DNA of 40,477 nt from a virus (Duplodnaviria; Heunggongvirae; Uroviricota; Caudoviricetes): the IMG/VR virus record IMGVR_UViG_2778261450_000004. One strand, written 5' to 3'. The notes beneath the pieces were generated by a model that saw nothing but the letters and a program-made list of their open reading frames with translations, was not told the DNA's origin and did no database searches. The translations under genes were made by a program, and so were the position numbers. Within the stretch, counting starts at the first letter, position 1. Each line of letters opens with the position of its first letter. Of this stretch, positions 24,764 through 25,451 are shown piece by piece.

Positions 24764-24779
24764 ACCCGCCGAAGCGGGT
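24764..24779 (-). terminator. Terminator at the 3' end of the hok mRNA
   Basis: On the - strand: ACCCGC-TTCG-GCGGGT hairpin followed by TTTTTGTTGT. A second 9-bp GC hairpin at 24819-24840 lies just after the hok stop. Confidence 0.45.
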
Positions 24780-24847
24780 AAGTACGGGTGCGTTGAGGAT
24801 GCCTGACACATCAGAGGTGGCGGGGGATTTCTCCCCCGCCAGGTCTC

Positions 24848-25003
24848 TTACTCCTCAGGTTCGTAAGCTGTGAAGACAGCGACCTCCGTCTGGCCGGTTC
24901 GGATTCGTACCTCGCAGAGGTCTTTCCTCGTTACCAGTGCCGTCACAACGACGGTTAAACAGATGACGATCAGGGCGATTAACATCGCCTTTTGCTGCTT
25001 CAT
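24848..25003 (-). CDS. hok: Hok/Gef-family type I toxin (host-killing membrane peptide)
   Basis: Hand translation MKQQKAMLIALIVICLTVVVTALVTRKDLCEVRIRTGQTEVAVFTAYEPEE (51 aa); AAGGAG SD; too short for the ORF track. Confidence 0.85.
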   Translation of the reverse strand: MKQQKAMLIALIVICLTVVVTALVTRKDLCEVRIRTGQTEVAVFTAYEPEE

Positions 25004-25061
25004 AGCCTGCTTCTCCTTGACCTTTTGGTCGGTAAGAGGCTAATCTACGTATGCAAAGCAT
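24855..25061 (-). CDS. mok: Mok (modulator of killing) overlapping reading frame
   Basis: 68-aa ORF overlapping hok in another frame and extending upstream, as in hok/mok/sok loci. Confidence 0.55.
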   Translation of the reverse strand: MLCIRRLASYRPKGQGEAGYEAAKGDVNRPDRHLFNRRCDGTGNEERPLRGTNPNRPDGGRCLHSLRT

Positions 25062-25115
25062 AGATGTGGCCTCAGATTAATGTTAAGCGTCTTGCCGGAC
25101 GCATAATGTTAACTG
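25045..25115 (+). ncRNA. sok: Possible Sok-like antisense RNA (position inferred, boundaries approximate)
   Basis: Inferred only from hok/sok locus architecture (antisense to the mok start region); no promoter or terminator identified. Confidence 0.2.
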
Positions 25116-25451
25116 GGGCTTTTCTCTATCTGCCTTTGGTGTTCATGCCCGAGGCAGACAGCCTCAAGCACCCGCAGCCATTCTACTTAACTCCCGTTAC
25201 CTCGCCAATATGAAATCAATCAGAAAGGCGATCCATAAGAACAACAGCAAGACCATAGATTGCCATCACAACCGCAATAGCCAGTGCACATTTCGTAACC
25301 AGCACGTTAACCTTTTGCATTTAACGTACGCATGTTCTAATAAATATAAACGGCACGATTATGCGGAATACTTTCATAAGCAGTCGCTCAAATCTGACCG
25401 TCAGCTTTGAGCGACAAGCGGATATCTATATGCCTATTAAAATTGCAAATC

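Follow-up and report, generated by a model that had tools for sequence, protein, structure and literature searches.

A predicted hok/mok/sok type I toxin-antitoxin module, intact in sequence, in a Rac-like LT-II prophage

Introduction

Does a short minus-strand region of a Caudoviricetes genome hold a complete hok/mok/sok type I toxin-antitoxin module or the decayed remains of one? The original prediction, read from the DNA letters, placed such a locus within a viral stretch of 40,477 nucleotides (IMG/VR record IMGVR_UViG_2778261450_000004; we call this whole stretch the window) and left its antisense RNA undelimited. We conclude from the sequence that the 24757-25208 region is very probably an intact copy of the hokD/hokW subtype. 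The copy lies early-right in a Rac-like LT-II prophage, flanked on one side by a slot for variable cargo (an ABC-three-component system in this case) and on the other by rem/nin/Q. The hok/mok/sok reading is backed by the protein family and the geometry of the genes, by the RNA-family match and the predicted folds, and by comparison with plasmid R1, K-12 hokC/sokC and K-12 hokD. The hok/mok gene pair is a textbook system of a known subtype and already stands in public annotation, as hokD or as mok/hok; what we add are the coordinates of Sok, the completeness of this copy and a few side observations, and otherwise nothing of substance is new.

Results

The toxin gene is a minus-strand frame of 51 codons plus TAA (24848..25003) that translates exactly into the Hok/Gef peptide originally read there. 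Its product matches Pfam PF01848 HOK_GEF (E=1.2e-23; 82.9 bits against a cut-off of 22) and PHROG 251 'MokW-like host killing' (6.9e-33), and is identical to RefSeq HokD WP_001406927.1 of strain SA31-1 and to `hok` of GenBank MN652886.1. By Pfam match and RefSeq identity it is a small hydrophobic Hok/Gef toxin of about 50 amino acids with an N-terminal transmembrane helix and a conserved Cys. The hok Shine-Dalgarno AAGGAG (25013..25018, minus strand) was read in the sequence and belongs to a CAAGGAGAAG block common to hokC, hokD and R1. Near the end of the frame, the Tyr47 codon UAC (24863..24865, minus strand) falls in a UACG TadA-editing motif that makes 24864 the candidate edited A; the TACG block is invariant in 22 homologues, and Tyr-to-Cys A-to-I editing at the Tyr47-equivalent position has been described for hokC/D/E (PMC5630033, PMC12214031). 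A tblastn search of the window returned no other hok copy.

Overlapping hok out of frame is a minus-strand frame of 68 codons plus TGA (24855..25061), present in the ORF list, whose start aligns with that of K-12 mokC. Its position and geometry had suggested mok, and MN652886.1 has a CDS with a 100% identical product under the name 'mok, modulator of killing'. The frame begins 58 nt before the hok ATG and ends 7 nt short of the hok stop. It has a Shine-Dalgarno of its own, GAGG (25070..25073, minus strand), 8 nt upstream of the mok AUG and part of a GAGGC that is invariant in 22 homologues; translational coupling of mok and hok is putative. The remark that the locus is missing from the ORF track is true of that track, but the omission reflects only an ORF length cut-off: hokD is annotated in RefSeq genomes, and mok and hok are both annotated in MN652886.1.

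Around these frames we found all cis elements of the R1 paradigm, namely hok promoter, tac with its metastable hairpin, ucb, mok Shine-Dalgarno, dcb, hok Shine-Dalgarno, 3′ hairpin, fbi and terminator. A promoter scan called the hok/mok promoter at 25180..25208 on the minus strand (-35 TTGGCG at 25208-25203, 17-nt spacer, -10 TAGAAT at 25185-25180), with 6 nt separating the -10 box from the conserved 5′ end of the mRNA, the spacing seen in R1-type and K-12 hokC loci. With its 5′ end set where the R1 hok mRNA start GGCGCUUGAGG aligns (T7 template primer, PMC1635323) and its 3′ end set by the terminator, the predicted full-length hok mRNA has about 417 nt (24757..25173, minus strand), opening with the conserved GGGUGCUUGAGG and closing with the U-run of the terminator. 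The first 12 nt are tac, the translational activator (GGGUGCUUGAGG; 25162..25173), which is conserved in 22 homologues and is predicted to pair over 12 of 12 nt with fbi in the full-length transcript and with ucb once the 3′ end is truncated. Folds of the first 30-48 nt contain a metastable hairpin at mRNA nt 3-29 (25145..25171) of 11 bp and -18.8 kcal/mol that would sequester tac in the nascent transcript, a concept set out in the introduction of PMC9841398; the R1-type control forms an analogous hairpin. Further downstream on the same strand lie ucb, or anti-SD (AAGCCCC, 25115..25121), which pairs with the mok Shine-Dalgarno in the full-length fold and with tac in the truncated one and is invariant in 22 homologues, and dcb (GCCUC, 25036..25040), which in the fold of mRNA nt 1-360 takes over the mok Shine-Dalgarno and closes the Sok-target hairpin.

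The 3′ end, where GC-rich hairpins had been noticed downstream of the hok stop, has two such structures flanking fbi. The first is a stable minus-strand hairpin, GGCGGGGGA-GAAA-UCCCCCGCC, with a 9-bp stem (24819..24840), legible in the sequence, recovered in the folds and conserved in homologues; by analogy with R1 (PMC9841398) it is presumed to be retained after processing as the 3′ end of the active mRNA. The second, a 6-bp GC stem-loop (24779-24764) followed by a U-run, was called by a terminator scan as an intrinsic terminator (24757..24779, minus strand), is common to K-12 hokD and is the sole terminator-like site in the region. Between them lies fbi, the fold-back inhibition element (CCUCAACGCACCC; 24786..24798, minus strand), which forms 12 bp with tac around one bulged C.

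The Rfam scan proposed with the original prediction gave a match to RF01794 'sok' at 24998-25173 over the full model length (106.1 bits against a gathering score of 59, E=2.8e-23), and this score together with the HOK_GEF E-value places the match far beyond chance. RF01794 reports on the hok-sense leader of the locus: the model matches the same strand of the K-12 hokC and R1-type leaders and has no match in the leaderless K-12 hokD.

Predicted folds of the transcript reproduce both states of the R1 switch. At full length (417 nt) the minimum free energy is -178.8 kcal/mol (z = -7.55 against shuffled sequences), nt 1-12 pair with nt 376-388 in the tac/fbi helix of 12 bp plus one bulge, and ucb pairs with the mok Shine-Dalgarno, three of whose four bases have a probability of being unpaired of about 0 in the ensemble. 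Forcing fbi to be unpaired costs 15.7 kcal/mol. When the mRNA is cut at nt 360, after the stable 3′ hairpin, the minimum free energy fold switches to tac/ucb pairing together with mok-SD/dcb pairing, which is the published active form; at nt 1-375 no switch occurs and tac remains paired with a 3′ segment. The predicted release of the mok Shine-Dalgarno from ucb thus hangs on the truncation point, and since nt 1-360 switches and nt 1-375 does not, the modelled active form assumes a processed 3′ end.

We examined whether these structures are conserved in homologues found by scanning species-representative genomes for Hok peptides. The scan gave 36 loci, of which 21 with recognisable ends, plus an R1-type locus, were aligned with the window; homologues were selected by a regular expression on the first and last 6-8 nt, which did not force the combinations of U/A with C/G. 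In the Photorhabdus and Pantoea sequences, which have no bulge, MAFFT puts the tac/fbi helix out of register, and per-sequence duplex folding was used alongside the alignment. Folded singly, all 22 homologues, the R1-type control included, pair the 5′ end with the 3′ end (9-12 of 12 nt) and ucb with the mok Shine-Dalgarno. On the alignment, the full-length leader structure has 84.9% of cells paired against 41-44% for slid controls, a comparison that favours the structure because it was derived from the window itself, and double-sided changes occur at 14 pairs. Within the long-range tac/fbi helix, 3 of 12 pairs show compensatory changes across the 22 homologues: at pair 4, 15 sequences have U:A and seven have C:G, with zero mismatches, pair 12 changes from G:C to A:U and pair 10 from A:U to G:C. 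A 12-bp helix in the minimum free energy fold, together with these changes, argues for a tac/fbi lock. The active-form pairs are 98.7-100% maintained for tac/ucb and SD/dcb together and 100% for SD/dcb, and all are invariant in the 22 homologues, so they offer conservation support and no covariation evidence either way. That the regulatory elements are conserved, and that genera differ in them by compensatory changes, implies that the RNA switch is under selection.

The antisense RNA had been guessed on the plus strand near 25050-25120, and homology now puts a predicted Sok of about 76 nt, with a single-stranded 5′ tail, a long hairpin and a U-rich 3′ end, at 25053..25128 on that strand. Through the alignment, the K-12 sokC annotation (b4413, 16952-17010) maps to 25053-25129(+), and the 5′ and 3′ ends of R1 Sok (T7-template primers, PMC1635323) map to 25053 and ~25128. 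Upstream, a predicted Sok promoter (25017..25046, plus strand) consists of a -35 TTGACC (25017-22), an 18-nt spacer and a -10 TAATCT (25041-46), with 6 nt between this box and the 5′ end of Sok as mapped, and it aligns position for position with the R1-type boxes TTGCGC / TATCCT and with the K-12 sokC promoter. A generic sigma-70 promoter scan called no plus-strand Sok promoter, and the promoter was therefore located by homology; the scan missed it because the -10 matches consensus at only 3/6 positions. The segment 25017-25128(+) thus holds a homologous sequence, promoter boxes with this 3/6 -10, a hairpin and a U-run, and the RNA folds at -31.8 kcal/mol (z = -5.1). Its hairpin tip has an 18-nt extension (25087-25104) relative to sokC and R1; many homologues in Escherichia, Kluyvera and related genera have the same extension, which marks it as a subtype trait and not a lesion. 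In the predicted active-form mRNA, the 5′ arm and the CUUUGC loop of the target hairpin complement the 5′ tail of Sok. This loop contains a YUNR-type UUUG, which may be linked to the U-turn rule.

The Rfam model requires a note on strand. RF01794 is named 'sok' and built on the hok-sense strand, though K-12 sokC is annotated on the opposite strand. A plus-strand Rfam search for Sok gave 13 bits only; a model built on the hok-sense strand certifies the leader and cannot confirm the antisense RNA.

To place the locus among known systems, we aligned it with K-12 hokC/mokC/sokC, K-12 hokD and the R1-type locus of an IncFII plasmid. The R1 hok/mok/sok (parB) locus, founding member of the family, has the same geometry, with an out-of-frame mok over hok and a cis-antisense Sok over the mok Shine-Dalgarno and start; it also has the same order of RNA elements (tac, metastable hairpin, ucb, mok SD, dcb, hok SD, 3′ hairpin, fbi), the same predicted full-length and truncated folds and the same Rfam family. 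The two differ in that their Hok peptides are only 45% identical, the R1 leader carries a 17-nt insertion in the tac-stem loop that the window leader lacks, the window Sok measures about 76 nt with its 18-nt hairpin-tip extension against 64 nt in R1, tac/fbi has U:A where R1 has C:G, and the R1 locus resides on a plasmid while that of the window resides in a prophage.

The two K-12 loci each match one part of the window locus. K-12 hokD (relF, in cryptic prophage Qin) encodes a Hok that differs at one residue (V19 versus I19) and shares a homologous coding region, 3′ hairpin, fbi, terminator, downstream rem and the same RefSeq name; its relBE genes are fused directly upstream, with relE in the place of the leader, and it has no promoter, tac, ucb, mok start or Sok and no Rfam match. 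K-12 hokC (gef)/mokC/sokC, conversely, has a nearly identical leader from the promoter -10 through GGGUGCUUGAGG, ucb and mok SD to the hok SD, but IS186 cuts the locus after the 3′ hairpin and fbi is absent. A 1-nt difference brings mokC into the frame of hokC in K-12, while the mok of the window, like that of R1, is out of frame; K-12 sokC is without the 18-nt hairpin extension. With a leader as in hokC and a 3′ part as in hokD, the window locus is the intact form of what K-12 has in pieces. A decayed copy, the outcome that the original prediction had said would undo it, is rejected at the level of sequence on these alignments, since the leader lost from K-12 hokD and the fbi lost from K-12 hokC both exist here.

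One prophage-borne relative is MN652886.1 ('Escherichia phage Rac', from LT-II E. coli 442/2), whose Mok, Hok and Rem (68, 51 and 86 aa) are 100% identical and whose locus belongs to the same prophage family and occupies the same place upstream of rem-irsA-ybcO-Q. That record annotates mok, hok and rem and leaves out Sok; its homology to the window begins at ~25190, upstream of which it has a cargo of five small hypothetical genes in place of the window's ABC-three-component system. The hokW-sokW locus of Stx2 prophage Sp5 and phage 933W (PMC8621323) likewise lies in a lambdoid prophage and encodes a 51-aa Hok, with 90.2% identity between the window Hok and HokW of 933W/VT2-Sakai. It belongs to another prophage and sits elsewhere on the map, close to one end in the records of 933W and VT2-Sakai. 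Among relatives whose function was tested experimentally it is the nearest to the window copy, which is known from sequence alone. Other Stx2a-converting phage records match the window DNA at about 88%.

A 561-nt query covering the locus found related sequence in 4726 of 5426 complete E. coli genomes, with at least 80% of query length matched in 2758. The best genome match, at 99.5%, is strain SA31-1, where RefSeq names the gene hokD, and the window is colinear with the SA31-1 Rac-like prophage that encodes LT-II enterotoxin and a pertussis-like toxin. hok genes have been found enriched in prophages (bioRxiv 10.1101/2025.08.07.668861). Two features of the upstream edge were seen in passing: a recombination breakpoint falls between the hok -35 and -10 boxes, adjoining the variable cargo, and a conserved, unannotated ORF for a 29-aa hydrophobic membrane peptide (25216-25305) ends 8 nt upstream of the hok -35. 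This upstream 29/34-aa ORF had no Pfam or PHROG match.

Discussion

The sequence elements, folds and conservation observed here are those of a locus that would work as R1 hok/sok does, and it is by analogy with that plasmid, whose mechanism and element definitions we adopted (PMC9841398 and PMC1635323), that we infer transcription, processing, killing and biological role. The promoter at 25208-25180(-) would drive a stable hok mRNA of about 417 nt, in which tac would be held in the metastable 5′ hairpin during synthesis. Once the transcript is finished, tac/fbi and ucb/mok SD pairing would shut out both ribosomes and Sok. Slow 3′ exonucleolytic trimming would then strip fbi, allowing tac to pair with ucb and the mok SD/dcb hairpin to present the Sok-target loop; mok could now be translated and hok with it by coupling, and the 51-aa Hok would insert into the inner membrane, killing or arresting the cell. 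Unstable Sok (25053-~25128, +), made continuously, would bind the refolded mRNA over the mok Shine-Dalgarno and start codon, block translation and trigger RNase III cleavage, and Hok would be made when Sok synthesis stops. For R1 it is known that Hok is toxic, that Sok is unstable while the hok mRNA is stable, that this mRNA is processed at its 3′ end, that RNase III cleaves the duplex and that cells are killed when Sok synthesis stops (PMC1635323, PMC9841398); part of this is known for hokW-sokW as well (PMC8621323).

The likeliest role, by analogy, is that of Sp5 hokW-sokW, in which Hok made on prophage induction would aid lysis and phage release. In that system, a functional type I toxin-antitoxin, Sok vanishes and Hok appears on RecA-dependent induction, and deletion of hokW-sokW halves phage release (PMC8621323). 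Prophage retention and phage exclusion are alternative roles, exclusion being possible because R1 hok/sok lowers T4 plating (PMC8621323).

A different reading is that the locus is a structurally intact and physiologically silent relic, so perfectly repressed or so barely transcribed that loss, induction or infection would bring no killing. According to bioRxiv 10.1101/2025.08.07.668861, Pedersen and Gerdes saw no post-segregational killing and no rifampicin response with intact chromosomal hokA (E. coli C), hokB (K-12) and hokC (ECOR24), and K-12 hokD, which is edited and expressed only at low level, speaks for silence. We nevertheless consider a silent relic unlikely: every regulatory element has been kept, with compensatory changes from genus to genus; hokW-sokW, a close homologue carried by a prophage, works and influences the release of phage; and 42 of 45 diverse Hok peptides proved toxic when tested (bioRxiv 10.1101/2025.08.07.668861).

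If the intact module is active, its extended Sok hairpin invites speculation. Prophage modules of the hokD/hokW type with the 18-nt extension might make up a separate specificity class, shielded from the other Sok RNAs of the host. They might be membrane switches that respond to induction or infection and border a slot for exchangeable defence cargo, maybe working together with the 29-aa membrane peptide. The basis for this idea is synteny and ORF conservation in one other phage, and we regard it as a long shot.

Repression could also be imagined without a working Sok of the locus's own. A hok/mok cassette whose Sok promoter is too weak might be held in check by mRNA fold-back alone or by Sok supplied in trans from another hok locus, an arrangement to which the uncalled 3/6 TAATCT box and the median of two related loci per E. 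coli genome lend some colour. The same box, however, keeps A2 and T6 and follows a -35 that matches consensus at 5/6 positions (TTGACC), the -10 of the annotated K-12 sokC promoter is just as far from consensus, and the promoter sequence is identical in two homologues (L009 and L010). Moreover, the R1 locus without Sok is lethal and is not rescued by endogenous chromosomal Sok RNAs (PMC9841398), so an intact copy lacking Sok would be counter-selected. A defective Sok is thus very improbable, and we retain the reading of a complete module.

Finally, the 3′ hairpins resemble another RNA: RF01394 (IsrK) matches 24759-24839(-) over its full model length, scoring 33.2 bits where the gathering threshold is 50 (E=6.7e-6 when 201 nt were searched). 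A separate sRNA of the IsrK type at 24839-24759 that binds Hfq and regulates the downstream rem, in place of a simple hok 3′ UTR, would recall Gifsy-1 IsrK, which controls a downstream antirepressor operon (PMC4825925), and rem is indeed called 'prophage antirepressor' in MN652886.1, but such an sRNA is hardly credible here and was rejected as the identity of the 3′ UTR, given a sub-threshold score carried by two generic GC hairpins and a U-run, a middle segment that is fbi and covaries with tac, a search that found no promoter inside hok, an IsrK paper that leaves hok unmentioned (PMC4825925), and a Rem of 86 aa against an AnrP of roughly 180 aa (estimated from transcript coordinates in PMC4825925 and compared by size alone).

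For the hok/mok/sok module itself, the result matters little beyond correct annotation, in that automatic pipelines name just hok ('hokD') and omit mok and Sok. The window copy could serve as the natural intact counterpart of the truncated K-12 hokD and could help ask whether the lysis-help phenotype of hokW-sokW extends to toxin-converting LT-II prophages. Separately, the Rfam scan returned a full-score RalA sRNA elsewhere in the window.

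Sok hairpin variation and the hok leader model

Comparison of the window with K-12 sokC and the R1 locus reveals a Sok hairpin whose tip is longer by an 18-nt segment at 25087–25104 (hok-sense index 70–87; hok-strand sequence AUGCGUCCGGCAAGACGC), with the hok-leader counterpart extended likewise. The segment occurs in approximately half of the sampled homologues, those from E. coli, Kluyvera and unclassified Enterobacteriaceae, and in this alignment its presence or absence defines long-hairpin and short-hairpin classes of Sok. An Rfam scan places a match to RF01794, named “sok antitoxin”, at 24998–25173 on the (−) strand, which is the hok-sense strand. 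The same orientation is found in K-12 hokC (L004 1902–2054, (−) strand), whose annotated sokC runs antisense to it, and in the R1-type plasmid locus (L003 332–503, (+) strand). Because these matches lie on the sense strand and the model spans the hok mRNA from its 5′ end to the hok AUG, RF01794 is a model of the hok leader and not of the antisense RNA.

Features of the hok coding sequence and 3′ UTR

The Hok Tyr47 codon (24863–24865, (−) strand; A at 24864) lies in a UACG TadA-editing motif by sequence, and this motif is invariant across the 22 aligned homologues. At the corresponding position of K-12 hokC, hokD and hokE, A-to-I editing is reported to convert Tyr to Cys (PMC5630033, PMC12214031). 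Downstream, the hok 3′ UTR (24759–24839, (−) strand) contains a 3′ hairpin, the fold-back inhibition element fbi and a terminator, and in Rfam scores 33.2 bits against IsrK (RF01394), below the gathering score of 50. IsrK is an sRNA of Salmonella Gifsy-1, and hok is absent from the text of the paper on it (PMC4825925); the likeness is probably a generic two-hairpin resemblance.

Prophage context and a probable cargo boundary at the hok promoter

Colinearity with E. coli SA31-1 places LT-II enterotoxin A/B genes and a scabin-related ADP-ribosyltransferase with its subtilase-type B subunit within 18482–22458 on the (−) strand, positioned on the flanks of the lysis genes. The element carrying the hok locus is a toxin-converting Rac-like prophage. 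A full-length, near-consensus RalA sRNA (RF02694) lies at 38743–38921 on the (−) strand and scores 218 bits against an Rfam gathering score of 170. In the RalR/RalA type I system of Rac, RalA serves as the antitoxin, so the prophage contains a further type I toxin-antitoxin locus besides hok/mok/sok.

Homology between the window and the Rac prophages of LT-II E. coli 442/2 (MN652886.1) and several other strains begins at ~25190, within the hok promoter spacer between the −35 and −10 elements. The upstream cargo (25452–28244) in the window and in SA31-1 is a three-gene ABC-three-component system that includes a DUF2326 gene (25452–27176); strain 442/2 carries five small hypothetical genes at the corresponding position and no ABC-three-component system. 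From these alignments, ~25190 looks like a cargo-exchange breakpoint adjoining hok.

Near-identical hok fragments are also present in assemblies labeled Acinetobacter idrijaensis and Xanthomonas pisi, on contigs of just 275 and 431 bp, and most likely represent E. coli contamination.

Separately, a small hydrophobic ORF lies at 25216–25305 on the (−) strand (29 aa from a GTG start, MLVTKCALAIAVVMAIYGLAVVLMDRLSD; 25216–25320 from an upstream ATG), with its 3′ end 8 nt upstream of the hok −35 element. Pfam and PHROG searches with the 29-aa ORF returned no match, and it lacks annotation in the records of both the window and phage mEp460_ev081. In mEp460_ev081 the ORF is also open, with 84% nucleotide identity to the window, and has a strong AGGAGG Shine–Dalgarno sequence and a GTG start.
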